Source of the DNA: Caldilineales bacterium
Lineage (GTDB): Bacteria; Chloroflexota; Anaerolineae; JAAEKA01
Assembly: GCA_025055015.1 (NCBI GenBank)
Contig: JANWYQ010000055.1
Location: forward strand, 41,371-105,370
Length of the DNA stretch: 64,000 nucleotides
Reading direction: 5' to 3'
The notes beneath the pieces were generated by a model. That model was not told the origin of the DNA, did no database searches, and saw only the letters and a program-made list of their open reading frames with translations. This document shows positions 6,001-20,602 of the stretch, in pieces. Numbering within the stretch: the stretch's first letter is position 1; the number at the start of each line of letters is the position of its first letter. The position numbers and the translations under genes are program-made.

Positions 6001-8083
6001 GGAATGGGTCCCTGTGGAGGGAGCGGGTGTCCCCGTACACCGTTGCGACCACTGCGCCAACGTTTCTTATATCAACCTGGACGACCTATGTCCGCTCTAC
6101 GGTTGCAATGGCCGCCTGGTACCCATGGCTGCTGGGGACACAGCGTGGGATGACAACCATTACCGACACCTGTACCGTACCTTGGAGCCGATCTCGGTTG
6201 TAGCAGAGGAACACACGGCCCAGTGGAAGCCAGACGAGGCAGGTCGCGTGCAGGATCGCTTCATCCGCGGGCAGATCAACGTGCTCAGCTGCTCGACCAC
6301 CTTCGAGCTGGGCGTGGACGTGGGCGACCTGCAGGCGGTGCTGATGCGCAACGTACCCCCGACTACCGCCAACTACATCCAGCGGGCTGGCCGCGCAGGG
6401 CGACGAACGGACTCGGTCGCCTTCGTGCTCACCTACGCGCAGCGTCGCTCCCACGACCTCACCCATTTCAACAAACCGGAGAAGATGGTGGCCGGCCGTA
6501 TCCTGCCGCCGGCAGTGGCCGTCAGCAACGAGAAGATCGTGCGCCGCCATGTCCACTCGGTCTTCCTAGCGGCTTTCTTCCGTTGGGCGAAGGATCAGCA
6601 CCGAAGGGAATTTGGCTCGGCAGGCGCTTTCTTTGCACCGGAAGACGAAGGGCCTTCGGGCCTCGACTTGCTCGCCGAGTATATCCGCCTACGGCCCGCT
6701 TCGCTGCCGGAAGCGCTGCTACGGATCGTGCCCCAAGATTTGCACGATGTCCTCGATATCGGCCGCTGGGGGTGGTTACCGAGCCTTACCAACGACACGG
6801 GAACGGGCATCCTCGATCGGGCCGCTCAGGAAGTGAACAACGATCTAGCTCTGTACGCCCAACTCGAGCAAGAGGCCGTGCGTCAGCGGCGCTACAACCA
6901 AGCCGAACACTTCCAGCGCGTGGCAAAGACCGTGCGCGACCGGGAGTTGCTCGGCTTTCTGGGCAGCCGCAACGTCCTGCCCGCCTACGGCTTCCCCAGC
7001 GATGTCGTCGAACTGCGCACGGGCCACATCCCCTCGATCCCGGAAGCGCGCAGGATCGAGCTCCAGCGCGACCTGAAGATCGCCATCGCCGAATACGCGC
7101 CCGGCGGCGAGGTGGTGGCGGCCAAGCGCATCTGGACCAGCGGTGGCCTCTACCGGATGCCAGGCCGCGATTGGCAACCCATCCACTATGCCGTCTGCCC
7201 CGATTGTGGCCGCTTTCATCGCGGCGCGCAGGAGATCGAGGGGCCGTGCGTGATATGCGGCGCAAGCCTGCGCAGTTGGCGTAGTCCGCACGGTCAGTTC
7301 ATCAGCCCCGAGTTCGGCTTCGTTGCGGCTCGCGAGCCGCGCAAAACCGGCGAGAACCGGCCGCAGCGGCTTTATGCCTCGCGCGTCTACTTTACCGAAT
7401 ACGCGCCCGAAGGGGACGAGCCGAGTGCGCTGGAACCTGTGCCGGAGCTGTCTGGCCCGGCGATCCGCACAGCCCGGCGCTACTCCCGCTACGGCAAGCT
7501 GGCGGTGGTCAACAGCGGTTTTCTCAACGCCGGTTTTCGCGTCTGCTCGATCTGTGGGTGGGCTGAACCGATGACGCCAAGCCGGCGGCCGCGCTGCAAG
7601 CCGGCCCATCAGAACCCGCGCACCGGCCATGACTGCTCCGGCTCCATTGACACCTACCACCTGGGCCACGAGTTCATCACCGACGTGTTGGAGCTCCGCT
7701 TCAACGGCGCGTTGGCGCCGGCTGGGGACATGAGACTGTGGCTTTCGACCCTCTACGCATTGCTGGAAGGGGCCAGCGAGACGCTGGGCATCCCGCGCGA
7801 CGATCTGGACGGCACGCTTTACCCTTACGAGGGTGGCTTGCCGCCCGCGTTGGTGCTCTTCGACAACGTGCCCGGCGGCGCCGCGCATGTACGGCGGGTG
7901 GCGCAAGCCCTGCCGGCGGTGGTGCAGGCCGCATGGGAACGCGTGGCCGGCTGCGAGTGCGGCGAGGAGACCAGCTGTTATGAGTGCCTGCGCAACTTCT
8001 ACAACCAGTGGTGCCATGACCAGTTAAAGCGAGGTCTGGCACGGGACTTTCTCCGAATGGTTTTGGAAAACGCGACGCGTTGA
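3095..8083 (+). CDS. DEAH-box SF2 helicase with C-terminal DUF1998 (MrfA/DruE-like zinc-ribbon) domain, 1662 aa
   Basis: Walker A motif VVATGTGSGKTETF (approx nt 3425-3466). DEAH box in LDEAHIYDG (nt 3859-3885). Motif VI QRAGRAGRR (approx nt 6381-6407). Multiple CxxC...CxxC zinc-ribbon pairs: CPHCQQRV..CPRCG, CDHCANV..CPLYGC, CPDCGRF..CVICG. Terminal cluster CECGEETSCYECLRNFYNQWCHDQ (nt approx 7945-8015) typical of DUF1998. About 700 aa are inserted between the RecA1 and RecA2 halves. A GGAGGA RBS precedes the ATG. Confidence 0.85.
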   Translation: MARPIHPLDATRKLSEDYARYLRTIYFFRDTELRAQFEKALDAPDFLVRGPILEAAPPFRLGRSIRQLIEAGVLHRDFRQLCSDALPYERPLYLHQEEAIVKVVAHGRNVVVATGTGSGKTETFLIPIFDHLLRQREAGLLKQLGVRALLLYPMNALANDQLKRLRRLLAAFPDITFGRYTGETPEGQRQAEDLFRRQFPAERLLPNERISRATMRESPPHILITNYAMLEYLLLRPRDSEFFDGETGRFWRFIALDEAHIYDGATGIEIAMLLRRVKERVVRSEPGRLRCIATSATLGRGRQDFPAVATFARELFGERFEWVDDDPVRQDVVEGQREEMAQLTAPWGEGSGELYAALAQAVVAEQSPADLASAALQAGLPGEVVQEAAHAAAQAKSHAASPAEQWTAGINAFLYAALRGDGRLHRLRAALREPQDLRKLAGKLGADGTDAEPLINLVQLAVRARSAPDAMSLLPARYHVFVRALEGAFVCLNRHHSAHAEEGKPRFFLTRFDNCPHCQQRVFELATCPRCGAAYIVGREETARLAGGGTVRLLLHPHPASAETDGGHAYFVLNGDALQPDEDEAVVTQAAVELLGTERLEPYTLCLGCGAVSPAEGGGPRCICRPTTPRISLRKVAVEEPTTADGATAARRSRREAGILSYCIGCGARNPNGVVYRFLTGQDAPVSVLATSLYQVLPPDRGADAAKLPGHGRKLLVFADSRQDAAFFAPYLERTYQQILRRRLILKILAEDPEGRKGRLRLDDLAGRLLRQAEDAALFTVEQSYDERLTLARQWLAQEFVALDYRIGLEGLGLLSYRLVPPELWEPPPVLLASPWNLGREEAWNLLVLLLNTLRQQGAVTFPPNVDVRDREAFGPRNVELFVGEVADERHGVLGWAPRRGSNRRLDFLTRLLQRRNGLSAKEAQAIAQRALQGLWTYLTSPNSCWRNHLVAESRPQVGVAWRLNYRFWEWVPVEGAGVPVHRCDHCANVSYINLDDLCPLYGCNGRLVPMAAGDTAWDDNHYRHLYRTLEPISVVAEEHTAQWKPDEAGRVQDRFIRGQINVLSCSTTFELGVDVGDLQAVLMRNVPPTTANYIQRAGRAGRRTDSVAFVLTYAQRRSHDLTHFNKPEKMVAGRILPPAVAVSNEKIVRRHVHSVFLAAFFRWAKDQHRREFGSAGAFFAPEDEGPSGLDLLAEYIRLRPASLPEALLRIVPQDLHDVLDIGRWGWLPSLTNDTGTGILDRAAQEVNNDLALYAQLEQEAVRQRRYNQAEHFQRVAKTVRDRELLGFLGSRNVLPAYGFPSDVVELRTGHIPSIPEARRIELQRDLKIAIAEYAPGGEVVAAKRIWTSGGLYRMPGRDWQPIHYAVCPDCGRFHRGAQEIEGPCVICGASLRSWRSPHGQFISPEFGFVAAREPRKTGENRPQRLYASRVYFTEYAPEGDEPSALEPVPELSGPAIRTARRYSRYGKLAVVNSGFLNAGFRVCSICGWAEPMTPSRRPRCKPAHQNPRTGHDCSGSIDTYHLGHEFITDVLELRFNGALAPAGDMRLWLSTLYALLEGASETLGIPRDDLDGTLYPYEGGLPPALVLFDNVPGGAAHVRRVAQALPAVVQAAWERVAGCECGEETSCYECLRNFYNQWCHDQLKRGLARDFLRMVLENATR

Positions 8084-8211: not shown

Positions 8212-9267
8212 ATGCCGACTACCTCTCCACCCCAACACGAACTCACTACTCCCTCTCCTCTCCTCGATCCCACCGGCCGGCTCGTGCAGGTGGGTTGGGC
8301 CAGGGCGCCGTTGCTGGACTGCAACTTGGAACAGGTCCGCTTCTACCCGCGGTTGTTTCGCTTCTTACAGCGTTTTCGTATCAAGCGCTGGGACTACTAC
8401 GGCGTCACCACTCCGGAGCGCTTCTTCTCCGCAACCCTGGCCGACTTGGGCTACGCCGGACAGGCGTTCGTCTACACTGTGGACTTCACCACCGGCGCCT
8501 ACCACGAGGAGACCATCACCCTTCCCCTGGGACGGGGGATTGTCCTGCCGCGCAACAGCACGGCCGGCGACAGTTACTTCTCCGACGGCAAAACGGCGCT
8601 CCGCTTCGAGGTGCGAGAGGATGAGCGTCGCCTGAGCGTGACCTGGCCCCGCTTCGGCGGCCAACCGCTTAGCGCCGAGATCGTCCTGGCCACGCCGCCT
8701 GCCCACCAGTCCACCGTGGTGGTCATCCCCATCGGACGCCGTCGCTTCTACTACAACCGCAAGATGAACTGCCTCCCGGCGCGCGGCTGGCTGCAGATCG
8801 GCTCGGAGCGCAGCGAGCTCAGTCCGGACACTTGCTTGGGCAACCTGGACTGGGGCCGAGGCGTCTGGGAGTACCGCTCTTTCTGGGTGTGGGCTAGCGC
8901 CTCCGGCTTTCTGCCCGACGGCCGCACCGTAGGGTTGAACCTGGGCTTCGGCTTTGGCGACACGTCGGCGGCCACCGAGAACACCCTGATCCTCAACGGC
9001 CGCATCCACAAGCTGGGGCAGGTGGACTTCTCCTACGACCCGGCCGATTTCCGCCGTGCGTGGCGCATGACGGCCCCGGACGGGCGGCTGGACGTGGAGT
9101 TCGTTCCCTTCGTCGAACGCGTAGCCCGCACTAACCTGCTGGTGATCACCAGCGAGGTACACCAGCTGTTCGGTCGCTACCGCGGCCGGGTCGTCGCCGA
9201 CGACGGAGAGGTCATCCCCCTCATGGGCCTCATCGGCTTCGCCGAGGAGCATCGCGCGCGCTGGTGA
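8212..9267 (+). CDS. conserved hypothetical protein (possibly DUF2804-like), 351 aa
   Basis: Clean ORF with no TM or catalytic motif recognised. The family assignment is from memory of a KRWDYYGV-type motif and is weak. Confidence 0.45.
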   Translation: MPTTSPPQHELTTPSPLLDPTGRLVQVGWARAPLLDCNLEQVRFYPRLFRFLQRFRIKRWDYYGVTTPERFFSATLADLGYAGQAFVYTVDFTTGAYHEETITLPLGRGIVLPRNSTAGDSYFSDGKTALRFEVREDERRLSVTWPRFGGQPLSAEIVLATPPAHQSTVVVIPIGRRRFYYNRKMNCLPARGWLQIGSERSELSPDTCLGNLDWGRGVWEYRSFWVWASASGFLPDGRTVGLNLGFGFGDTSAATENTLILNGRIHKLGQVDFSYDPADFRRAWRMTAPDGRLDVEFVPFVERVARTNLLVITSEVHQLFGRYRGRVVADDGEVIPLMGLIGFAEEHRARW

Positions 9268-9455
9268 CGAGGGGTGCTGGGCATGTGCGCGCTCGAGGAA
9301 CCACGTGGCGGCTACCGTATGCGTGAACGATGGCCACGCATCCCTGAGCAGCATCTGAAGAAGGTCGGGTCGGGGTTCGAACCGGACGCTAGAGCCAGGC
9401 GGGACGCCCTCTTGATCCGGGGGATGAGGGCACCTTCTCCGGCCGCTTCAGAATC

Positions 9456-9483
9456 TTGACAAATCGGATGTCCAGAATAGAAT
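9456..9483 (+). promoter_or_regulatory. sigma70-like promoter of the lysine cluster (TTGACA-16 nt-TAGAAT)
   Basis: TTGACA at 9456-9461 and TAGAAT at 9478-9483, with a 16-nt spacer, about 30 nt upstream of the leader ORF. Confidence 0.55.
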
Positions 9484-9514
9484 GCAGGCCACGTTGCAGT
9501 GTAGACGTTTGCCT

Positions 9515-9595
9515 ATGACCTGCGCTTCCATCTTCGCCAAGTCCAAGTCCAAGCAGCCGTCCCAGGCCTGGGATGGCTTGTTGAGCTTGGGCTGA
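9515..9595 (+). CDS. lysine-operon leader peptide (MTCASIFAKSKSKQPSQAWDGLLSLG, three AAG Lys codons)
   Basis: ATG at 9515 and TGA at 9593-9595. Lys codons in the KSKSK stretch. The ORF lies between the promoter and an intrinsic terminator upstream of lysW. Thermus thermophilus is known to regulate its AAA lysine cluster through a Lys-rich leader peptide. Confidence 0.6.
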   Translation: MTCASIFAKSKSKQPSQAWDGLLSLG

Positions 9596-9620
9596 GCGCG
9601 GTCCACCCACCCAAGTTTGC

Positions 9621-9662
9621 AAGTCCTGCCAGGCCTGGCGCCTCGGCAGGACTTTTTGTTTG
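9621..9662 (+). terminator. intrinsic terminator / attenuator hairpin (GTCCTGCC-loop-GGCAGGAC followed by TTTTTGTTT)
   Basis: Perfect 8-bp GC-rich stem at 9623-9630 pairing with 9645-9652, followed by a T-run. The hairpin lies 80 nt upstream of the lysW ATG. Confidence 0.7.
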
Positions 9663-9743
9663 CCTATACGGCGGCAATGCGGCCCCTCCTCGCCCGCCCG
9701 GCGAGCCAGGGCCGCTTTTTTATCCCCCACCCAGGAGTGCATC

Positions 9744-9914
9744 ATGACCTACCAAACCAACTGTCCCGAGTGCGACGCCGTCCTTACCCTCACCGACCCC
9801 CTCCAGGGCGAAATCGTGCCCTGCCCCGACTGCGGTGTGGAGCTGGAGGTGGTGTCCGTAAGCCCGCTGACCCTGGACCTGGCGCCCGAGGAAGAGGAGG
9901 ACTGGGGCGAATGA
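9744..9914 (+). CDS. lysW: alpha-aminoadipate/glutamate carrier protein LysW (56 aa)
   Basis: N-terminal Zn-ribbon CPECDA..CPDCG. Acidic C-terminal tail EEEEDWGE characteristic of LysW. AGGAG RBS. Stop overlaps the lysX start (ATGA). Confidence 0.9.
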
Positions 9915-10777
9915 CGCGCGTGGCCGTCCTCGTTTCCCGCATACGCGTCGAGGAGAAGCTGCTGCTGGCCAGCCTGGAGGCGGCCGGCGCGCAGGTGCAG
10001 GTGGTCAACGACGGGGAGCTGGTCTTCCGCCTGGGTGACGGCGTCACCCGGCTGGAGGCTGACGTGGCGCTGGAGCGCTCGGTGAGCACGGCGCGTGGGC
10101 TCTACGCTCTGCGCCTGCTGGAGGCCGCGGGCATGCCCACGGTCAACACCTACACGGTGGCCTCCACCTGCGCGGACAAGCTGCTGACCACCGCTGCGCT
10201 GACCGAGGCCGGCATACCCCAGCCGCAGGCGCGCGTCGCCTTCACGCCGGAGGCCGCTCTCCAAGCCATCGAGGAGCTGGGCTATCCGGTGGTGCTCAAG
10301 CCGGTGGTGGGCTCGTGGGGCCGGCTGCTCGCCCGGGTCAACGACCGAGACGCGGCCGAGGCGATCCTGGAGCATAAGGAGGTGCTGGGCTCCTACCTGC
10401 ACAGCATCGTCTACGTGCAGGAGTACATCGCCAAGCCGGGCCGCGACGTCCGCGCCTTCGTGGTGGGCGACGAGACTGTGGCGGCCATCTACCGTCGCTC
10501 CGACCACTGGATCACCAACACCGCTCGCGGGGGCCAGGCCGGCAACTGCCCGGTGACGCCGGAGATCAACGACCTGTGCCGCCGCGCCGCGCGTGCGGTG
10601 GGCGCAGGCGAAGCCGGCGCAGTGCTGGCCGTTGACCTGCTGGAGGACCCCGACCGCGGGCTGCTGGTCAACGAGGTTAACCACACCATGGAGTTCCGCA
10701 ACAGCATCGAGCCCACCGGCGTGGACATTCCGGGGCTGGTGGCGAGGTATGTGCTGGCGCGGGCGGGTGGCCGCTGA
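9911..10777 (+). CDS. lysX: LysX, alpha-aminoadipate--LysW ligase (RimK-type ATP-grasp)
   Basis: ATP-grasp fold motifs. Immediately follows lysW with an ATGA overlap. Confidence 0.85.
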
Positions 10778-10892
10778 TCGGTAACCGATGACCGGTGACC
10801 GGTAGCTCGTAAGCCGCAACCCTCTGCGCGAAGAGACGACCGCTCACTGATCACCGATTACCGCTCACTGATCACCGTTCACCGTTCACCGA
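10776..10892. repeat. heptanucleotide tandem repeat array (GGTAACC/GGTGACC units), then reverse-complement array (CTGATCA/CCGTTCA units) giving an imperfect inverted repeat
   Basis: 7-nt periodicity visible in cggtaac cgatgac cggtgac cggtagc ... ccgctca ctgatca ccgatta ccgctca ctgatca ccgttca ccgttca. Located in the lysX-lysY intergenic region. Confidence 0.8.
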
Positions 10893-10899
10893 GACAACC

Positions 10900-11973
10900 A
10901 TGACCGTACGAGCATCCATCGTCGGCGCGTCGGGCTACGGCGGCGGCGAGCTGCTGCGGCTGCTGCTGGCCCACCCCCACGTGGAGGTCGCCCAGGTGAC
11001 CTCGGAGTCCAACGCCGGCAACTACGTGCACAGCGTGCACCCCAACCTGCGGCCCGGCCTGGCCATGCGGCGGTATGCGGGCTACGCCAGCGGCCAGGGG
11101 CTGCGCTTCACCAGCATCGCCGAGCTGCAGCCGTGCGACGTGCTCTTCCTGGCCCTGCCCCACGGCGAGGCGCAGCGTCGCATCGAGCACTTCGCCGGCC
11201 TAGCCGAGCGCATCGTGGACCTGTCGGCCGACTTCCGGCTGCGGGACCCGGCCGCCTACCGCCAGCGCTACGGCGAGCCCCACCTTGCGCCGGCTTGGCT
11301 GGAGCGCTTCGTCTACGGCCTGCCGGAGCTGAACCGGGAGGCCATCCGCCAAACCCGCTACTGCAGCGGCGTGGGCTGCAACGCCACGGCCTCCATCCTG
11401 GCCCTGCTGCCGCTGCAGCGGGCCGGCCTCCTGCGCGCGGACCGGCCCATCGTGGTGGACGTCAAGGCCGGCTCCTCCGAGGGCGGCGCATCGCCCAGCC
11501 TGGCCTCGCACCACCCGGAGCGCAGCGGCGCAGTGCGCTCCTTTGCGCCCACCGGCCACCGCCACGAGGCCGAGGTGATCCAGGCCCTGGGCCGGGAGGA
11601 CATCTACCTCTCGGTGACGTCCATCGAGCTGGTGCGCGGGGTGTTAGCCACGGCCCATTGCTGGGTGGAGCCTGGGCTGACCGACAAGGACCTGTGGCGC
11701 GCCTACCGCGCCGCCTACGGCCAGGAACCCTTCGTGCGCATCGTGCACGAGCGGACCGGCGTCTATCGCCATCCGGAGCCCAAGCTGCTGGCCGGCACCA
11801 ACCTGGCCGACGTCGGCTGGGACCTGGACCCGGCCACCGGCCGGCTGGTGGCCCTGGCCGCGATTGACAACCTGGGCAAGGGCGCAGCCGGCAGCGCCGT
11901 GCAGTGCATGAACCTGATGCTCGGCCTCGACGAGACGGCTGGGCTGGAGTTTGTCGGGTTACATCCGGTGTGA
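10900..11973 (+). CDS. lysY: LysY / ArgC-type N-acyl-gamma-aminoadipyl(glutamyl)-phosphate reductase
   Basis: N-terminal Rossmann motif VGASGYGGGELLRLL. Catalytic Cys region SGVGCNATA. Length 357 aa. Confidence 0.85.
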   Translation: MTVRASIVGASGYGGGELLRLLLAHPHVEVAQVTSESNAGNYVHSVHPNLRPGLAMRRYAGYASGQGLRFTSIAELQPCDVLFLALPHGEAQRRIEHFAGLAERIVDLSADFRLRDPAAYRQRYGEPHLAPAWLERFVYGLPELNREAIRQTRYCSGVGCNATASILALLPLQRAGLLRADRPIVVDVKAGSSEGGASPSLASHHPERSGAVRSFAPTGHRHEAEVIQALGREDIYLSVTSIELVRGVLATAHCWVEPGLTDKDLWRAYRAAYGQEPFVRIVHERTGVYRHPEPKLLAGTNLADVGWDLDPATGRLVALAAIDNLGKGAAGSAVQCMNLMLGLDETAGLEFVGLHPV

Positions 11974-12055
11974 TCAGTAACCGGTGAACGGTAACCGGTA
12001 AGCAGTGACCGGACTGCCAACCACCGTTTGCCGTTTACCGATCACCGTTTATCGG
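11972..12055. repeat. heptanucleotide tandem repeat array (GAACGGT/AACCGGT forward, then CACCGTT/TGCCGTT reverse orientation)
   Basis: tgatcagtaaccggtgaacggtaaccggtaagcagtgacc...ccaccgtttgccgtttaccgatcaccgtttatcgg. Same unit family as 10776-10892 and 52779-52880. Located in the lysY-lysZ spacer. Confidence 0.8.
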
Positions 12056-12067
12056 CATGGAGTAGAC

Positions 12068-12883
12068 ATGAACCCACTCGTCATCAAGGCCGGCGGCGGC
12101 GCGGGCGTGGACGTGGACGCGATCTGCCGGGACGTGGCAGCGCTGGCAGCGGCCGGGCAGCCGCTGGTGCTGGTGCACGGCACGTCGGCCGCCGCGGACG
12201 CGCTGGCGCAGCGAGCCGGCGTGCCTGTGCGCACCCTGACCTCCCCCTCCGGCCACGTCAGCCGGTACACCGACCCGGAAACGCTGGAGATCTACGTGGC
12301 CGCAGCGGCCGGCCAGGTGAACAAGCGCATCGTGGCCACCCTGCAGGGGCTGGGCTGCAACGCGGTGGGCCTGTCGGGCGTGGACGGCCGCCTGCTGCTG
12401 GCCGAGCGCAAGGACGCCGTGCGCGCGGTGGAGGCCGGCCGGCAGCGCATCGTGCGGGACGACTACACCGGCCGGCTGGTGTCGGTCAACGCGGACCTGC
12501 TGCGGCTGCTGCTGGCCGCGGGCTACACGCCGGTGGTCGCGCCCCTGGCTTTGGGCACGCAGGCTGAGCGGCTCAACGTGGACGGCGACCGTGCGGCGGC
12601 GCTGGTGGCCGTGGGCCTGGCGGCCGCCAAGCTGGTCATTCTCACCAACGTGCCAGGCCTGCTGGCCAGCTTTCCCGACGAGGCCAGCCTGGTGCGCCAT
12701 GTGCCGGCCGACCGTCTGGACTGGGCCGAGGGCCTGGCCCAAGGGCGCATGAAGAAGAAGGTGCTGGCCGCGCGCGAGGCCCTGGCCGGCGGCGTCCCCA
12801 CCGTCATCCTGGCCGACTCGCGCGTGCCTCAGCCGGTGCAGGCGGCGCTGGCGGGCAGCGGGACGTGGATCGGTGAACGGTAA
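12068..12883 (+). CDS. lysZ: LysZ / ArgB-type amino-acid kinase
   Basis: Begins MNPLVIKAGGGAG (amino-acid kinase family N-terminus). Confidence 0.8.
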   Translation: MNPLVIKAGGGAGVDVDAICRDVAALAAAGQPLVLVHGTSAAADALAQRAGVPVRTLTSPSGHVSRYTDPETLEIYVAAAAGQVNKRIVATLQGLGCNAVGLSGVDGRLLLAERKDAVRAVEAGRQRIVRDDYTGRLVSVNADLLRLLLAAGYTPVVAPLALGTQAERLNVDGDRAAALVAVGLAAAKLVILTNVPGLLASFPDEASLVRHVPADRLDWAEGLAQGRMKKKVLAAREALAGGVPTVILADSRVPQPVQAALAGSGTWIGER

Positions 12884-14065
12884 ATGGACCCCACAGCCAT
12901 CATATCCATCGAGTCCGCCCACACCTCCGGCGTTTACCCGAAGCGGCCGGTGGCCATCGTGCGCGGGCAGGGCGCGCGGGTGTGGGACGCCGAGGGCAAC
13001 GAGTACGTTGACTGCGTGGGCGGCCAGGGCGCAGCCAACCTGGGCCACGCCCACCCGGCCATCGTGGCCGCCGTCACCCAGCAGGCCGCGCAGCTCATCT
13101 CCTGCCCGGAGATCTTCCACAACGACCGCCGGGCGGAGCTGTTGGCAGCCCTGGCCCAGGCCGCGCCGGCCGGCCTGCAGCGAGCCTTCCTGTGCAACTC
13201 CGGCGCCGAGGCGGTGGAGGCGGCCATCAAGTTCGCCTGGCTGAGCACCGGCCGTCGGCAGATCGTAGCCTGTCAACGGGGCTTCCACGGCCGCACCCTG
13301 GGCGCACTGTCTGCCACCTGGGAGCCCAAGTACCGCGAGCCTTTCGAGCCGCTGGTGCCCGGCTTTCGCCACGTGCCCTACAACGACGTGGACGCGCTGG
13401 AGCAGGCCGTGGACGACCAGACCGCTGCGGTGCTGCTGGAGGTGGTGCAGGGCGAGGGCGGGGTGCGGCCCGGCGATCCGGCCTTCCTGCTGGCCGCGCA
13501 GCGCCTCTGCCGCGAGCGGGGCGCGCTGCTGATCGTGGACGAGGTGCAGACCGGCTACGGTCGCACCGGTCGTCTCTTCGCCTGTCAGCACTACGGCCTG
13601 GAGCCCGACCTGATGCCCATCGCCAAGTCCATGGCCGGCGGCCTGCCCATGGGCGCGTGTCTGATCGGACCTCGGGTGGGCGAGCTGGCCAAGCTGACCC
13701 ACGGCAGCACCTTCGGCGGCAACCCATTGGCCTGTGCAGCGGCCCTGGCTACGCTGCACGTCATGGCTGCCGAGGACCTGCCCGGCCGGGCAGCCCGCCT
13801 GGGCGCCTGGCTGCTGGAGCGCCTGCGGGCCATCCGCTCGCCGCTGATCCGCGAGGTGCGCGGCCTGGGCCTGCTGGTGGGCATCGAGCTCAAGGTCAAG
13901 GTCACGCCGATTTTGCAGCGGCTGCAGGCGCGCGGCGTCCTGGCTCTGCCCGCCGGCGCCGCCGTTCTCCGCCTCCTGCCGCCCTTGGTCATCGAGCAGG
14001 AGGACCTGGAGCGCGTGGCGCAGGCGATTGAGGCGGAGCTGGGACGAGGCACGAGCAACGAGTAA
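12884..14065 (+). CDS. lysJ: LysJ / ArgD-type class-III aminotransferase (acetylornithine/LysW-gamma-lysine aminotransferase)
   Basis: PLP aminotransferase class III motifs: LIVDEVQTGYGRTG and the PLP-lysine region PDLMPIAKSMAGG. Stop/start overlap with lysZ (TAAATG). Confidence 0.85.
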   Translation: MDPTAIISIESAHTSGVYPKRPVAIVRGQGARVWDAEGNEYVDCVGGQGAANLGHAHPAIVAAVTQQAAQLISCPEIFHNDRRAELLAALAQAAPAGLQRAFLCNSGAEAVEAAIKFAWLSTGRRQIVACQRGFHGRTLGALSATWEPKYREPFEPLVPGFRHVPYNDVDALEQAVDDQTAAVLLEVVQGEGGVRPGDPAFLLAAQRLCRERGALLIVDEVQTGYGRTGRLFACQHYGLEPDLMPIAKSMAGGLPMGACLIGPRVGELAKLTHGSTFGGNPLACAAALATLHVMAAEDLPGRAARLGAWLLERLRAIRSPLIREVRGLGLLVGIELKVKVTPILQRLQARGVLALPAGAAVLRLLPPLVIEQEDLERVAQAIEAELGRGTSNE

Positions 14066-14255
14066 CGCTTGCATCTGCGCTGCGCTCTGTCGCCAGTGCA
14101 GATGTACATAACCCGGATCCGTCCCACCACTTCCGGTGACGCATCACCTACGACGCACCACACGGTCCCGAACACTGGGCAACCCGGAGACGGCCACCAC
14201 CACTCCGGCTGCGCGGGACGCCTCACTCGTTACGCATCAGTTCCCGGAGCCCCCT

Positions 14256-15407
14256 ATGTCCCTGGAAAACTACAACATCATCGAGTCGACCCTCCGCGAG
14301 GGTGAACAGTTCGTCGGCGCGCAGTTCACGCGCGAGCAGAAGATCCGCATTGCCCAGGCGCTGGACGGCCTCGGCGTGGAGTACCTGGAGCTCACGTCGC
14401 CGTTGGCCTCGCCCGGCAGCCTGGAGGACATCAAGGCCATCGTTGGCCTGGGCCTTCATGCCCGCATCCTCACCCACATCCGCTGCCACAAGGAAGACGC
14501 CAAGGTGGCGCTGGACACCGGCGTGGACGGCATTGACGTGGTGATCGGCACCTCGTCGCAGCTGCGCCAGTTCAGCCACGGCAAGAGCATTGACGAGATC
14601 ATTGACCTGGCGGCTGAGGTGTTGACCTTCATCCGCAGCCAGGCGCCGGGCATTGAGCTGCGCTTCAGCACCGAGGACTCCTTTCGCAGCGAGGAGAAGG
14701 ACCTGCTGCGAGTCTACCTGGCCGTGGACCGGCTGGGGGTGGTCAACCGCCTGGGCATCGCCGACACTGTGGGCATTGCCACGCCCAGCCAGGTGCTGCG
14801 CCTGGTGAGCACCCTGCGCCGGCTCACCACCGCCGACATCGAGTTCCACGGCCACAACGACTCCGGCTGCGCGGTGGCCAACGCCTTCGCCGCGCTGGAG
14901 GGCGGCGCGACGCATGTGGACACCAGCGTGCTGGGCATCGGCGAGCGCAACGGCATCACCCCCCTGGGCGCGTTCATCGCCCGCATGTACACCTACGACC
15001 GCGAGACGGTGAAGCGCAAATATCGTCTGGATCGCCTGCGCCGGGTGGAGCTGATGGTGGCCGAGATGGTGGGCGTGGACATCCCCTTCAACAACCCCAT
15101 CACCGGCTTCTGCGCCTTTACCCACAAGGCCGGCATCCACGCCAAGGCCATCCTCAACAAGCCGGAGACCTACGAGGCCCTGGATCCCACCGACTTCGGC
15201 CTGACCCGCTACATCTCCATCGCCCATCGCCTGACCGGCTGGAACGCGGTCAAGGCTCGCGCCGAGCAGCTCGGCCTGAGCCTCACCGACGAGCAGATCA
15301 AGTCCCTCACCCAGCACATCAAGGCCCTGGCCGACGAAAAGCCGCTAGGGCTGGACGATGTGGATGAGCTGTTGCACACGTGGGGGAATGGAGTGGGTGG
15401 TAACTGA
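14256..15407 (+). CDS. homocitrate synthase (LeuA/NifV family)
   Basis: [15 protein letters not shown] motif near the N-terminus and HxH metal site HGHNDSG. Positioned directly before homoaconitase in the lysine cluster. Confidence 0.85.
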
Positions 15408-15417
15408 GGAGTACGCC

Positions 15418-17526
15418 ATGCCTTACACCTTCGCCGAAAAAGCCTTGGCCCGCGCGGCCGGTTTGCGCAGCGCCGTGGTCGGGCAGATCGTAGACGTCAC
15501 CCCTGACGTGGCCCTCAGCCATGACAACACGGCTGCCATCGCCCGCATCTTCCGATCGCTAGGCGCAGAGCGGGTCAAACATCCGGAGCGGCTGGCCATT
15601 ACCCTGGACCACGCGGTGCCCGCGCCCACCACGCTCCACGCCACCAACCACGCGGAGGTGCGTCGCTTCGTGGCCGAGCAAGGCATCCGCCATTTCTTCG
15701 AGGCCGGCCGCGGCATCTGCCACCAGGTGCTCAGCGAGGAGGCGCTGGTGCTGCCCGGCCAGACGGTCCTGGGCGCGGACAGCCACACCACGCACTTCGG
15801 CTGGCTGGGCGCCTTCGGCGCGGGCATCGGCCGCAGCGAGATGGCAGCCATCTGGGCCACCGGCCAGCTCTGGCTGCGGGTGCCGGAGACCATCCGCGTT
15901 GACCTGGTGGGTGAGCTGCCGCCGGGCGTCACCGCCAAGGACCTGAGCCTGGTGGTGTTGCAGATGCTGGGCGAGGAGGCCGGCATCTACCGCGCCTTGG
16001 AGTTCGGCGGGCCCGGCCTGGCCACCCTAAGCCTGGAGAGCCGCATGGTGATCCCCAACATGATGGCCGAGGCTGGGGCGAAGAGCGCGTACCTGCCGCC
16101 GGACGAGGCGGTGTTTCGGTGGTTGGCGGAGCGGCTGGTGCGGAGGCGGGAGGGGAAAAGGAGGGAAAGGAGGGAAAGGAGGGAGCTGGGGGAGCTAGGG
16201 GAACCAGAGGAACTGGGGGAGGTGGTGGAGCGGCTGAGGGCGATGGCGCTGTACCCTGACCCGGACGCGACCTACGTGGCGCGCTACGAGGTGAACCTGT
16301 CGGCCCTGGAGCCGGTGGTGGCGTGTCCCCATCATCCGGCCAACGTGGCGCCGCTGTCGCAGGTGGCAGGGACGCGGGTGGACCAGGCCTTCCTGGGCAC
16401 CTGCACCAACGGCCGGCTGGAGGACCTGGCCGAGGCTGCGGCGGTGCTGCGGGCCCCCGACGGCCGGGTGCGGCGGGTGGCGCCCGGCACGCGGCTGCTG
16501 GTGATCCCCGCCTCCAGCGAAGTGCTTCAGGCTGCGCTGGCCGCGGGCTACCTCGAGACCTTCCTGCAGGCCGGAGCCATGATCGGCACCCCCGGCTGCG
16601 GTCCCTGCATGGGCAACCACATGGGCATCCCCGCGCCGGGCGAGGTGACTATTAGCAGCGCCACCCGCAACTGCCGCGGGCGCATGGGCACGGCCGAGAG
16701 CGAGGTCTACCTGGCCAGCCCGGCAGTGGTGGCGGCGTCGGCGGTCTTGGGCCGTATTGCGGATCCGCGGGAGGTCATCGGAGACGGGAAGGAGGAGAGG
16801 AAGGAGCGTAGGGCGAGGAGGGACAAGGCGGAGACGCAGAGGTGGTGGAGGGTTGTGCACGAGATACCGGAGGTGGCAGCAGTCCCGCAGGCGGCGCTCG
16901 CCGGAGGTCGGCCGGCAGGCAGGCGGCAGGCAGCAGACGGTCCGGGGTTAGCGGATCCCGCTGACGGGGCCGGCGCTCCACCCCACCACCCAACCAATTT
17001 ACCGATCCACCAACCTACCGACCACCTCTCCCCCTCTGCCTTCTCCGGCCGCGCCTGGAAGTACGGCGACAACGTCAATACCGACGTGATCTTCCCCGGC
17101 AAGTACACCTACACCCTGCGCGAGCCCAGCGAGTGGGCGAAGCACGCGCTGGAGGACCTAGACCCGACCTTTGCGGCCAACGTGCAGCCTGGCGATATCA
17201 TCGTGGCCGGCCGCAACTGGGGCTGTGGCTCCAGCCGTGAGCAGGCCGTGGGCGCGCTCAAGGCTGCCGGCGTGCGCGCCATCGTGGCCGCCAGCTTTGC
17301 CCGCATCTACTTCCGCAACGCGGTCAACAACGGCATCCTGCCCATCGTCTGCCCCGAGGCCGTGGCCGCCATCCAGCCCGGCGAGACCGTCACCGTGGAC
17401 CCGGAGCGCTGCATCGTGCGCTGCGCAGCCGGCGACTTCCCCTTCCCTCCCCTGTCCGACTCGCTGAGAGCCATCGTGGCGGCGGGGGGATTGGTGGAGA
17501 TGTTGAGAGCAACACGTAATGCGTAA
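15418..17526 (+). CDS. homoaconitase with fused large (LeuC-like) and small (LeuD-like) subunits joined by low-complexity linkers
   Basis: Aconitase-family Fe-S ligand motifs GADSHT, GTCTNGR and GCGPCMG in the first 480 aa. A LeuD-like swivel domain at the C-terminus ([16 protein letters not shown]...[14 protein letters not shown]). Two purine-rich insert-encoded linkers (nt 16141-16235 and 16780-17040). No stop codon between the two domains. Confidence 0.8.
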
Positions 17527-17731
17527 CCCGCAGCTGGTGTGGCGCAGGTGTTAGGGATGGTAGGAGCTCCGTTGACGCGGGTTCGATCGCCGGGCTAGCG
17601 TGGTGCAGGTGAAAGTTGGCCGTTCTCGTCCGCCGCTAGGACGGTCAGCTCCAGCATTGGGAAAGGGTAGCCAGCCCGATTGCGCAGATGCCGGATCAGG
17701 ATGCCCGTGTCCAACAGATATGCCGGCATGT

Positions 17732-17989
17732 TCACACGCCTTCTGCCCGATCCCACTCCAGCCGAGCGCGCCCCTCAGCGATCCACCGATCAATAGCGGG
17801 GCCATCGGCCAGCTCCGGATGGTCTGCATCCTGCCAGGCGCCGGCGCTGGCCTCCAAGGCAGCTTCCACCTGGATGCGCCGTAGCTCGCGCTCGACAGCC
17901 TCGGCGATAAATCGAGCCCGCTGCCGCGGCGGCACGAGATCGCGCAAGGCCCTGGCTACGTCTGCCGGCAGCAACACGTTCACACGCAT
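17732..17989 (-). CDS. ribbon-helix-helix (CopG/antitoxin-like) protein, 86 aa
   Basis: MRVNVLLPADVARALRDLV...RFIAEAVERELRR is an RHH signature. C-terminal GAWQDADHPELADGPAIDRWI tail resembles VapB/antitoxin C-termini. A paralog lies at 51599-51931. No adjacent toxin gene recognised. Confidence 0.6.
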   Translation of the reverse strand: MRVNVLLPADVARALRDLVPPRQRARFIAEAVERELRRIQVEAALEASAGAWQDADHPELADGPAIDRWIAEGRARLEWDRAEGV

Positions 17990-18234
17990 GGGAGGTGATG
18001 AATTGGTCACGGCGCACTCCGTAGGCACAGAAGTTTGTGCTTTCATTCTAAACACATCGAGGAGAGTGTCAAGAGCCGATAGCTGTAACACACGTAACGC
18101 GTAGTGTGTAATCCAAAGCTTGTGCAAGGTGTCTGCTCACTTCCGCCCAAGAGTTACGTCTTACCTGTGGCGCACGACTCGTTATGCCCCCGACAAGTCC
18201 TGCCACACTGCACTTGTCCCACGAGGAACCTCCC

Positions 18235-19287
18235 ATGCCCACTATCTGTCTCATCCCCGGCGACGGCGTCGGCCAGGAGGTGATCCCGGCCGCAGCGCGA
18301 GTGTTGACGACGGTCGCGCCTGACTTGGCCTTTGTGGAGGCCGAGGCCGGCTGGGCGTGCTTCCTGCGCTGCGGCACGGCCCTGCCCGACGAGACCCTGG
18401 CCGCCGTAGCCGCTGCGGACGCCACCCTCTTCGGCGCCACCCAGTCGCCTAGCACGCCGGTGGAGGGCTACCGCAGCCCCATCCTGGCCCTGCGCCAGCA
18501 CTTCGACCTCTACGCTAACTTGCGGCCTACCTGGACGATGCTGCCCGGCCAACCGGCTCTTGACCTCCTCCTCGTCCGCGAGAACACCGAGTGTCTCTAC
18601 GTCGGCCGCGAGCGCCGGGAGGGCGATGCGGCCATCGCCGAGCGCGTCATCACCCGCCGCGCCAGCCAACGCATTGCCCACGTCGCCTTCCAGCACGCGC
18701 GGCGGCGCGCGCAACAACCCTCCGCCTCATTGGCCACTGACAGTTTACCATTGACCATTGGCCAGTCCGCCGTCACCGTCGTTCACAAAGCTAACGTCCT
18801 CAAGCTCACCGACGGCCTGTTCCGAGAGGCGTGCCTGGAGGTGGCTCAAGCGTACCCCGACGTGCGGGTCAACGAGATGCTGGTGGACGCGGCCGCCATG
18901 TGGCTGGTGAAGAACCCCGGCCGCTTCGACGTGATCGTCACCACCAACCTTTTCGGCGACATCCTCTCCGACCTGGCCGCCGGGCTGGTGGGCGGGCTGG
19001 GCGTGGCGCCCTCGGCCAACGTGGGCGCGGGCCGGGTGGCCGTCTTCGAGCCGGTGCACGGCAGCGCGCCCGATATCGCCGGCCAGGGGATCGCCAACCC
19101 GGTGGGCGCCATCCTCAGCGCAGCGATGCTCCTGGACCACATCGGCCGGCCGGAGGCTGCGCGCCGGGTGCGCAGCGCTGTGGCCGAGACGCTGGCCTGT
19201 GGTACAATAACCCCCGACCTAGGCGGCGCGGCCTCCACCGACGAGGTGACGGCGGCGGTCGTCAGACACGCCAGCGCCCAGCGTTAG
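18235..19287 (+). CDS. homoisocitrate dehydrogenase (isocitrate/isopropylmalate dehydrogenase family)
   Basis: Begins [32 protein letters not shown] signature of beta-decarboxylating dehydrogenases. GAGGAA RBS. Confidence 0.85.
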
Positions 19288-19360: not shown

Positions 19361-20602
19361 TTGAAGCAGGAAACGGCGAGCCGGTTCTTCGGCATTTCCC
19401 CCTCGGCCGGTGAAGGGATTGAGCCGGCGCGCGACCGGCGCTTGCTGTGGGATGTGCCTGACCGGCGGCTCGACGAGACCTCCGCTGCGGCGGTAGACGG
19501 CCTCGATCTGCTCCGCAGTCTGCTGGAGATCCCCTCCCTCTCCGGCCAGGAGGCGGCTGCAGCGGCCTTCCTGGCGGACTGGATGGGCCGGCATGGACTG
19601 CGCGCCTTCGTGGACGCCGTGGGCAACGCTGTGGGCATCGTGGACGGCGGGCCGGCCGCCGACGGCTCGCCGCCGCAGGACGTTGTACTGCTGGGTCACA
19701 TTGACACCGTGGGCGGCCACGTTCCGGTGCGGGTCGAGGAGGGCAAGCTGTACGGCCGTGGGGCGGTGGACGCCAAGGGGCCGCTGGCCGCCTTCGCCGT
19801 GGCCGCAGCGCTGGTCGGGCCGCGGCCTGGCTGGCTCATCGTGGTCATCGCTGCGGTGGAGGAGGAGGCGGCTACGTCCCGGGGCGCGCGCCACGCCGCG
19901 GCGCAGTACCGCCCTGCATACTGCGTGATCGGCGAGCCCAGCGGCTGGAGCCGGGTCACCCTAGGCTACAAGGGTCGGCTGCTGGCCCATGTCGCCGTGC
20001 GCCAGCCCATGTCCCACACCGCCGGACCGGCCCCCTCGGCCTGCGAGCTGGCCGTGGACCTGTGGAACCGGGTGCGCAGCCGGGTGGCCGAGCTCAACGC
20101 CGGCCGCGACAAGCCGTGGGACCAGGTGCTGGCCTCGCTGCGCAGCTTCAGCTCCGACAGCGACGGCCTGACCGAGACGGCGCAGATGATGCTCGGCTTC
20201 CGCCTGCCCCCGGACATCGGGCCGGAGGCGCTGCAGGCGGAGCTGCAGGCGCTGGCCGGCCCGGCCGAGCTAGCCTTCGAGGGCGCCGAGGTCGCCTATC
20301 GCGCCGACAAGAACAACGCCCTGGTGCGCGCCTTCCTGGCCGCCATTCGGGCCCAAGGCGGACAGCCGGGCTTCGTGCTGAAAACCGGCACCTCCGACAT
20401 GAACGTGGTGGGGCCCATCTGGCGGTGCCCCATCGTGGCCTACGGGCCGGGCGACAGCAGCCTGGACCACACCCCCCACGAACACGTGGCCATCGAGGAG
20501 TGGCAGCGGGGCGTGGCCGTGCTGGTGGACATGTTGCAGCGAGTGACGGCCGGCCAAGCTGCCGCCGATGAGGCTGTGGTGGGTCAGGCGGCGGCCGAGT
20601 AG
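19361..20602 (+). CDS. lysK: LysK ([LysW]-lysine hydrolase, ArgE/M20 family); start codon uncertain
   Basis: M20 peptidase metal-binding motifs: LLGHIDTV and GRGAVDAKG. Lies at the end of the AAA cluster. Confidence 0.75.
   Translation: MKQETASRFFGISPSAGEGIEPARDRRLLWDVPDRRLDETSAAAVDGLDLLRSLLEIPSLSGQEAAAAAFLADWMGRHGLRAFVDAVGNAVGIVDGGPAADGSPPQDVVLLGHIDTVGGHVPVRVEEGKLYGRGAVDAKGPLAAFAVAAALVGPRPGWLIVVIAAVEEEAATSRGARHAAAQYRPAYCVIGEPSGWSRVTLGYKGRLLAHVAVRQPMSHTAGPAPSACELAVDLWNRVRSRVAELNAGRDKPWDQVLASLRSFSSDSDGLTETAQMMLGFRLPPDIGPEALQAELQALAGPAELAFEGAEVAYRADKNNALVRAFLAAIRAQGGQPGFVLKTGTSDMNVVGPIWRCPIVAYGPGDSSLDHTPHEHVAIEEWQRGVAVLVDMLQRVTAGQAAADEAVVGQAAAE

Follow-up and report, generated by a model that had tools for sequence, protein, structure and literature searches.

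We analysed a 64-kb stretch of a Caldilineales bacterium genome (contig JANWYQ010000055.1, assembly GCA_025055015.1), hereafter the window; all coordinates are positions in this stretch, on the plus strand unless stated. We observed that the gap between the stop codon of a DUF2804 gene (9267) and the ATG of lysW (9744) carries what is, judged from its sequence, very probably a trp/his-type transcription attenuator, through which a translating ribosome would respond to lysine supply. An initial annotation of this DNA had read the region as ribosome-mediated attenuation, and this reading is supported by a promoter, a short open reading frame (ORF) with lysine codons, an intrinsic terminator, a covarying antiterminator and the geometry that connects them.

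The element begins with a sigma-70-type promoter at 9456-9483 (-35 TTGACA at 9456-9461, 16-nt spacer, -10 TAGAAT at 9478-9483), which fits 11 of 12 consensus positions and is the sole promoter-like site in the 1.6 kb from 8800 to 10400, where 0.2 are expected from shuffles. A box of the form 'gaTTTGACAaatc..N17..TA(T/G/A)AAT' is found in relatives at an equal distance 5' of the leader ATG. We infer that transcription starts near 9490, ~7 nt past TAGAAT. Downstream lies the leader ORF at 9515-9595 (ATG 9515-9517, TGA 9593-9595), whose 26 codons encode MTCASIFAKSKSKQPSQAWDGLLSLG. The initial annotation had listed both the TTGACA-16-TAGAAT promoter and a 26-codon ORF with three AAG codons in a KSKSK run, and both were found as described. 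The equivalent of a Shine-Dalgarno (SD) sequence is a degenerate GUAGA at ~9502-9506, and the leader would be translated in spite of this weak SD; some relatives look near-leaderless at the leader ORF.

The putative regulatory codons lie at 9539-9553, with AAG at 9539-9541, 9545-9547 and 9551-9553 (K-S-K-S-K). Lys accounts for 1.7% of residues in the neighbouring genes, and three K within five residues of a 26-residue peptide are expected by chance with a frequency of ~0.001. The choice of AAG follows local Lys codon use (AAG 83 versus AAA 14). The next position, 9554-9556, is CAG in the window and AAG in most relatives. When 74 loci were examined for Lys runs in a small ORF followed by a terminator upstream of lysW, we obtained 20 loci on the sense strand versus 1 on the antisense strand. 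Lys gave the top count of any amino acid in this test, with Arg second at 16 loci. Small ORFs that are Arg-rich or mix Arg and Lys (e.g. MKRARRLPKKPNEAFGLLRVGR) were also seen within 400 nt upstream of lysW at L026, L046, L055 and L059, and these could be leaders for LysW/ArgW systems in arginine synthesis.

Folding of the region 9490-9745 gave a structure more stable than its shuffles (z = -5.3). The initial annotation had suggested a search for alternative terminator and antiterminator pairings here, and folding produced three mutually exclusive helices. The first, hairpin 1:2 (9535-9598), is a candidate protector or pause hairpin with an energy of -40.7 kcal/mol (z = -6.0); its 5' arm (9540-9564) holds the Lys codons and its 3' arm (9569-9593) reaches the stop codon. 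The second is a candidate antiterminator, helix 2:3 (9562-9638), formed by region 2 (9562-9592) and region 3 (9609-9638), the latter including the 5' arm of the terminator. Helix 2:3 has an energy of -44.8 kcal/mol; in RNA that lacks region 1, it becomes the minimum-energy fold and the terminator is gone. The third helix, 3:4, is the intrinsic terminator T1 (9621-9661), with a stem at 9621-9654 around a GC-rich core at 9623-9652 and an energy of -21 to -24.5 kcal/mol. Its tail TTTTTGTTT corresponds to the U tract UUUUUGUUU at 9653-9661, whose first two U (9653-9654) form the closing A-U pairs of the stem, 9621/9654 and 9622/9653. The hairpin with its tail had been reported before and is present; the 8 bp then assigned to it are too few, as the stem consists of 10 bp with a further inner stem of 4 bp. 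A general terminator scan made no call at T1, presumably a misfit between its criteria and the interrupted stem. From the end of T1 to the lysW ATG there are 82 nt.

The positions of these parts match attenuator geometry, with the Lys codons within the 5' arm of hairpin 1:2 and the stop codon (9593-9595) at the 3' end of region 2. In constrained folds of the window, a ribosome placed on the Lys codons left 0 of 12 terminator pairs, and a ribosome placed at the stop codon left 12 of 12. In co-transcriptional folds, for which each RNA was ended before the 3' arm of the terminator, each of the 14 homologues had 7-11 nt of its T1 5' arm sequestered when a ribosome was on the Lys codons. With the ribosome at the stop codon, the T1 5' arm was mostly free, and a few local pairs persisted in several homologues. 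The clearest thermodynamic switch among the homologues is that of the window.

The mechanism suggested by these folds would run as follows. Transcription would start ~7 nt past TAGAAT, and a ribosome would engage the leader while the polymerase makes the next ~150 nt. If Lys-tRNA is abundant, the ribosome would reach the TGA at 9593-9595 and cover region 2, so that T1 forms and the transcript ends before lysW. If Lys-tRNA is limiting, the ribosome would stall on the AAG codons at 9539-9553, holding region 1 and leaving region 2 (9562-9592) free. Region 2 would then pair with region 3 (9609-9638), the T1 5' arm would be sequestered, and the polymerase would read through into lysWXYZJ-hcs-hacAB. 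On an untranslated transcript, 1:2 and 3:4 would both form, and termination would be expected. The switch would in this way depend on lysine.

To place the element in a family, a scan of species-representative genomes was anchored on LysX and gave 80 loci, mostly from Chloroflexota, with lysW adjacent in 73; a pattern scan of metagenomes added 41 further loci. A covariance model, R1, was built from an alignment of 14 elements (A1). In genomes and metagenomes of Chloroflexota it picks up 53 elements at 72-131 bits, of which 47 are distinct. The window element scores 106 bits and is the only one that R1 finds in the 64 kb. Among the metagenomic loci with enough downstream DNA, lysW follows at 150-500 nt in 34 of 34. 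The searchable literature yielded no account of such a Lys leader family in Chloroflexota, and Rfam has no family that matches the element; the family is apparently undescribed and uncatalogued.

The 47 distinct sequences were aligned (A3) and their pairing was assessed. Hairpin 1:2 and T1 together are 97.4% paired with seven compensatory pairs. None of 500 column shuffles matched the pairing or the covariation score, partners that had been slid along the alignment were 35-57% paired, and an unfitted MAFFT alignment still gave 95.9% pairing. Taken separately, helices 1 and 2 of hairpin 1:2 are 91.5% and 99.7% paired with two compensatory pairs, and T1 is 99.7% paired with compensatory changes at five of eight pairs. 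The core of helix 2:3, which was absent from the model used for aligning, is 98.1% paired across the 47 sequences, and 11 cells at three of its pairs carry compensatory changes. Here too 0 of 500 shuffles reached the pairing or the covariation score, and slid partners were 14-60% paired. Since helix 2:3 uses A3 columns 120-126, which also form the T1 5' arm, 2:3 and T1 are mutually exclusive.

The reading frame is conserved along with the helices. The initial annotation had stated that its proposal would fall if the small ORF or its Lys codons were not conserved in orthologous regions; conservation of both was found across the 47 distinct members, all of which have a homologous ORF in which indels are mostly multiples of three. 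An in-frame ATG is present in 35 of 47 and a conserved GTG or TTG, 21 nt before the first Lys codon, in the other 12, while an in-frame stop lies 14-20 codons past the first Lys in 47 of 47. AAG is invariant at A3 columns 8-10 and 20-22. Columns 26-28 have AAG in 41 sequences and AAC in 6; columns 29-31 have AAG in 46 and CAG in one, the window. The leader peptides of the closest relatives share a motif such as ..K[CS][SP]KSKKPSLA[CW](R)[DE]G.L.LG, and the C-terminal half, PS.AW[DE]G.L.LG, is conserved.

These data bear on the idea that the element is an RNA switch that works independently of translation (a riboswitch, or a leader that binds tRNA or protein) and that the small ORF is incidental. 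The strong structure (z = -5.3), the covarying conserved helices and the poor SD of the window would fit such a switch, and lysine riboswitches often control lysine genes elsewhere. However, Rfam, including the L-box and T-box, gave no match even at E <= 10, and the structure is a plain three-helix competition with no multi-stem aptamer. A3 columns 8-10 fall outside every predicted helix, and yet AAG is invariant there. The start and the stop stay in frame in 47 of 47 despite the indels, and the Lys-specific enrichment is what would be expected of a codon sensor. We therefore consider a translation-independent switch extremely improbable.

Another possibility is that promoter, ORF and T1 constitute a separate small gene, whose product would be a small protein or a small RNA (sRNA) of ~165 nt, and that lysW is expressed from elsewhere or by unregulated read-through. 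The unit does have its own strong promoter and terminator and a peptide with a conserved C-terminal half, and attenuated leader transcripts can moonlight as sRNAs, as rnTrpL does (PMC12612679). But a promoter scan found no further promoter-like site between T1 and lysW, where the 82-nt gap is mostly taken up by a second hairpin (T2, below), and L127 and L095 have the lysW SD immediately after the T1 U-tract. The unit stands directly before lysW in all 34 loci noted above. In a free-standing gene, the conserved helix 2:3 that competes with the terminator would be purposeless, and the peptide residues that are conserved are encoded where the RNA is paired. A separate gene is on these grounds very unlikely, and we retain the attenuator as the preferred reading.

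Small ORFs with Lys runs and a terminator upstream of lysW were also observed farther afield, at L053, L069, L074 and L079 (Ardenticatenaceae, Thermoflexus and others). The first three of these loci have two Lys-run units in tandem, and L079 has one. Leader peptides of distant Chloroflexota differ from those of the family (e.g. MSLISKCSKQEKKAIVS and ..DKKAKKHNPP), and their R1 scores are marginal.

A feature absent from the initial annotation is a second terminator-like hairpin, T2 (9679-9721), with a stem-loop at 9679-9715 and U6 at 9716-9721. Its sequence is GCGGCCC-CUC-CUCGCC-CGCCC-GGCGAG-CCA-GGGCCGC followed by U6, at -26 to -29 kcal/mol, and it is placed 17 nt past the T1 U-tract and 11 nt before the lysW SD. 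T2 is an orphan, with no leader ORF that belongs to it. In most relatives lysW is preceded by two complete Lys-leader attenuators, one after the other, which we call types A and B. The B-type leader (..KRAKKQ..SLPDWRSG) has its own terminator, is laid out like A (alignment A2); the switch was seen in 9 of its 12 constrained folds. R1 matches the B copies weakly but over the full length of the model, which suggests an old duplication. T2 of the window resembles the B-type terminator of L003, L011 and L006. An A leader with an orphan T2 is also present in L126 (the closest relative, with LysW 93% identical), L114, L119 and L086, and, apparently independently, in L004, L082, L096 and L117. L127 (LysW 89% identical) and L095 have no T2.

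The simplest reading of T2 is that of a vestigial, partly efficient constitutive terminator. That it is the leftover of a duplicated second, B-type Lys attenuator, now an unregulated partial terminator, is a proposal to which we give about even chances. A remnant of the B leader itself was sought in the window and rejected, as the T1-T2 interval has neither a Lys ORF nor an R1 match. We also considered a relay in which one leader peptide controls both T1 and T2. With the ribosome stalled and T1 unformed, the freed G-rich T1 3' arm (9637-9651) would pair with the C-rich T2 5' arm (9687-9698) and open T2, and a polymerase leaking through a folded T1 would stop at the intact T2. If so, T2 would be a proofreading terminator that cuts basal but not induced expression, and if the relay held more broadly, tandem duplicated Lys-leader attenuators would be two-stage switches in Chloroflexota. 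The duplex between the two arms reaches -19 to -22 kcal/mol in five of seven sequences (-21 in the window), but these energies are just 1-2 standard deviations better than those of shuffles (-13 to -17), and similarity between T1 and T2 alone could explain them. We regard the relay as unlikely.

An ORF that runs from an ATG at 9677 through T2 was rejected as coding. Its motif GGCAAUGCGGCCC is conserved, but the ORF lacks both an SD and Lys codons, and its frame varies: it agrees with that of lysW in L086 and L119, does not do so in the window, and closes after 9 codons in L114. An antisense ORF of 118 amino acids (9389-9745) was likewise rejected as a gene and is a compositional artefact: it has no Pfam match, its length lies within that of dinucleotide shuffles (P = 0.11), and it is broken in L003, L004, L007 and L010.

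The tandem arrangements in relatives show several further features. In L006 (983-1920), from a Caldilineales metagenome-assembled genome (MAG), a gene for a LysE-family translocator (1123-1746, PF01810) lies between attenuator A (983-1118) and attenuator B (~1787-1920), and lysine limitation would then seem to turn on this exporter-family gene. In L002 (567-725 and ~150 nt upstream), an insertion of ~90 nt with its own hairpin and T-run splits the B-type leader ORF; it has the look of a small element, mobile or repeat, that has landed in a leader peptide gene. In L003 and L011, inverted repeats of the type 'CCAATAACCAAT / ATTGGTTATTGG' run on both sides of the B attenuator, first in the gap from T1 to leader B and then past T2. 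L129 was excluded as a chimeric contig, in which poly-T and an Illumina-adapter-like sequence (..GTGACTGGAGTTCAGACGTGTGCTCTTCCGATCT) at ~150-235 lie directly upstream of a T2-like hairpin.

Several observations weigh against a working lysine attenuator in the window. The full-length minimum-energy fold retains the terminator in 13 of 14 homologues even though region 1 is masked; as the antiterminator wins only in the co-transcriptional folds of these 13, the switch must be kinetic, and known attenuators also switch kinetically. The shuffles used for the pair counts ignore phylogeny, and the conservation of the peptide C-terminus is inseparable from constraint on the RNA structure. No leader in the family has fewer Lys codons than the three of the window leader, and its GUAGA stands in place of the GGAGA found 9-10 nt upstream in the closest relatives L086, L114 and L119. 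Lastly, T2 looks efficient, no antiterminator for it was identified, and an efficient T2 would blunt induction.

Some of these points would suit a window copy that is a decayed relic of the family attenuator and has lost its response to lysine. Next to GUAGA for GGAGA, such a relic could explain the CAG that replaces the fourth AAG, unique among the 47 sequences, and the deletion of the B leader with retention of T2. Against this, the helices of the window are all intact, and a change in its T1 stem is compensated (GUCCUGCC/GGCAGGAC versus GCCCUGCC/GGCAGGGC in the family). The copy that would have decayed also shows the clearest thermodynamic switch of all homologues and scores 106 bits with R1, and transcription has no other way into an operon whose lysine pathway is complete and intact. 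Two regulatory codons are enough in trp and are also what a Thermus leader has (below). Given the intact helices, decay is unlikely, and a functional attenuator remains the reading that we favour.

The element is not an assembly artefact, since 9400-9760 was recovered at 100% identity in a separate sequencing run (L125). The genes behind it form a complete LysW-type alpha-aminoadipate (AAA) lysine pathway. The first gene, lysW (9733-9914, with SD AGGAG at 9733-9737, ATG at 9744 and stop at 9912-9914), encodes a protein that matches Pfam PF21344 and NCBIfam TIGR01206, both over cut-off. Its 3' end is overlapped by the start of lysX (9911-10777) at 9911. There follow lysY (10900-11973), lysZ for the [LysW]-aminoadipate kinase (12005-12883), lysJ (12884-14065), the homocitrate synthase gene hcs as the operon's sixth gene (14136-15407) and a fused homoaconitase gene of the hacA family (15358-17526). 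Beyond an insertion of 0.66 kb lie the genes for homoisocitrate dehydrogenase (18184-19287) and [LysW]-lysine hydrolase, lysK (19361-20602). The matches of lysX, lysZ, hcs, the homoaconitase gene and lysK are above cut-off. As listed, the hcs ORF and the homoaconitase ORF (722 amino acids, large and small subunit domains fused) overlap by 50 nt, and the true start of the homoaconitase probably lies further downstream than the listed ORF start.

The 0.66-kb segment (17527-18183, minus strand) splits the cluster between the homoaconitase and homoisocitrate dehydrogenase genes. It has a promoter, TTGACA-16-TAGAAT (18072->18045), with hexamers identical to those of the leader promoter, two small ORFs (17989->17732, 85 amino acids; 17729->17595, 44 amino acids) and 'TTACG..ACGTGT'-like motifs at both ends. 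By eye only, the ORFs resemble an antitoxin of the ribbon-helix-helix (RHH) type and the beginning of a PIN toxin; a Pfam search with the two minus-strand ORFs at 17595-17989 gave no match. Thermus lysine clusters carry toxin-antitoxin modules between lys genes (HicA/HicB, NTP_transf_2/HEPN and RHH/PIN by their Pfam labels), at 7503-7923 in L122, at 7137-7677, 10880-11542 and 12579-13210 in L123, and at 2154-2574 and 5716-6036 in L124, and these parallel the insertion in the window's cluster.

Leader-peptide attenuation is documented mostly in Proteobacteria, in some Actinobacteria and, for lysine, in Thermus. The present element would place it in Chloroflexota, in control of the LysW-dependent AAA pathway of lysine synthesis. 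A family of at least 53 members with covariation for both the 'off' and the 'on' structure is a candidate for a curated family, and such a family would improve operon annotation in Chloroflexota MAGs. The unusual features of the element are the tandem copies in its relatives and the orphan T2 of the window. The variants among relatives (tandem A and B, A with an orphan T2, A alone) offer a natural series on serial attenuators and their dose-response.

Among known systems, the lysine riboswitch (L-box, RF00168) is likewise a cis-acting 5' leader in which termination represses lysine genes when lysine is plentiful. Unlike the window element, however, the L-box works without an ORF, as a five-stem aptamer that itself binds lysine. 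The initial annotation had seen here the Thermus logic of a leader peptide rather than an L-box riboswitch, and neither RF00168 nor the T-box (RF00230) matched at the gathering threshold or at E <= 10. No Rfam family reached the gathering threshold in the window, and at E <= 10 only chance microRNA-like and hepatitis B virus-like hairpins appeared in 9000-10200. The L-box was also not found in 20 other Chloroflexota lysW loci.

The architecture of helices 1:2, 2:3 and 3:4 is shared with the enterobacterial attenuators (trpL, hisL, leuL, thrL, pheL and ilvL; RF00513, RF00514, RF00512, RF00506), as are regulatory codons in region 1, a stop before or within region 2 and a predicted ribosome-independent state of 'superattenuation'. 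The window element differs from them in its amino acid (Lys), its phylum (Chloroflexota) and its sequence, which matches no Rfam leader family. Tandem riboswitches and tandem T-boxes are known cis-regulators. The A and B series of the relatives is similar and should sharpen the response, but the repeated unit here is a leader-peptide attenuator, and the window, unlike these tandem systems, keeps only the terminator of the second unit.

The closest functional parallel is found in Thermus. T. thermophilus reportedly controls its AAA cluster through a Lys leader-peptide attenuator that was investigated by experiment. We observed in the Thermus islandicus locus L122 (6226-6369), upstream of hcs, a promoter TTGACA-N17-TATACG followed by the ORF MLAREKKLGRRGVG with AAA AAA and a terminator that abuts the hcs SD, presumably the counterpart of the T. 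thermophilus attenuator. The Thermus and window elements have in common a strong promoter, a short Lys-codon ORF and a terminator before the first gene of a LysW-type AAA cluster, and both would follow the logic that a ribosome stalled on Lys codons blocks termination. The initial annotation had seen the same logic in both; the Thermus precedent is real in T. islandicus, but it shows no detectable homology to the window element and lies at another place in its cluster. The leader ORF is 14 codons long with AAA AAA in Thermus, and 26 codons long with three AAG set apart from each other in the window. The Thermus leader precedes hcs, with lysW in mid-cluster, whereas the window element precedes lysW, with hcs the sixth gene. 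Unlike Thermus, the Chloroflexota family usually has two tandem copies, and the window adds a leaderless terminator. R1 did not match the Thermus leader (L122 6226-6369) at E <= 10, and the peptides are unrelated (MLAREKKLGRRGVG versus ..AKSKSKQPSQAWDGLLSLG). From their sequences, the Thermus and Chloroflexota leaders would be functional analogues rather than demonstrable homologues, and the lack of detectable homology suggests that attenuation of AAA genes through Lys codons arose, or diverged past recognition, at least two times.

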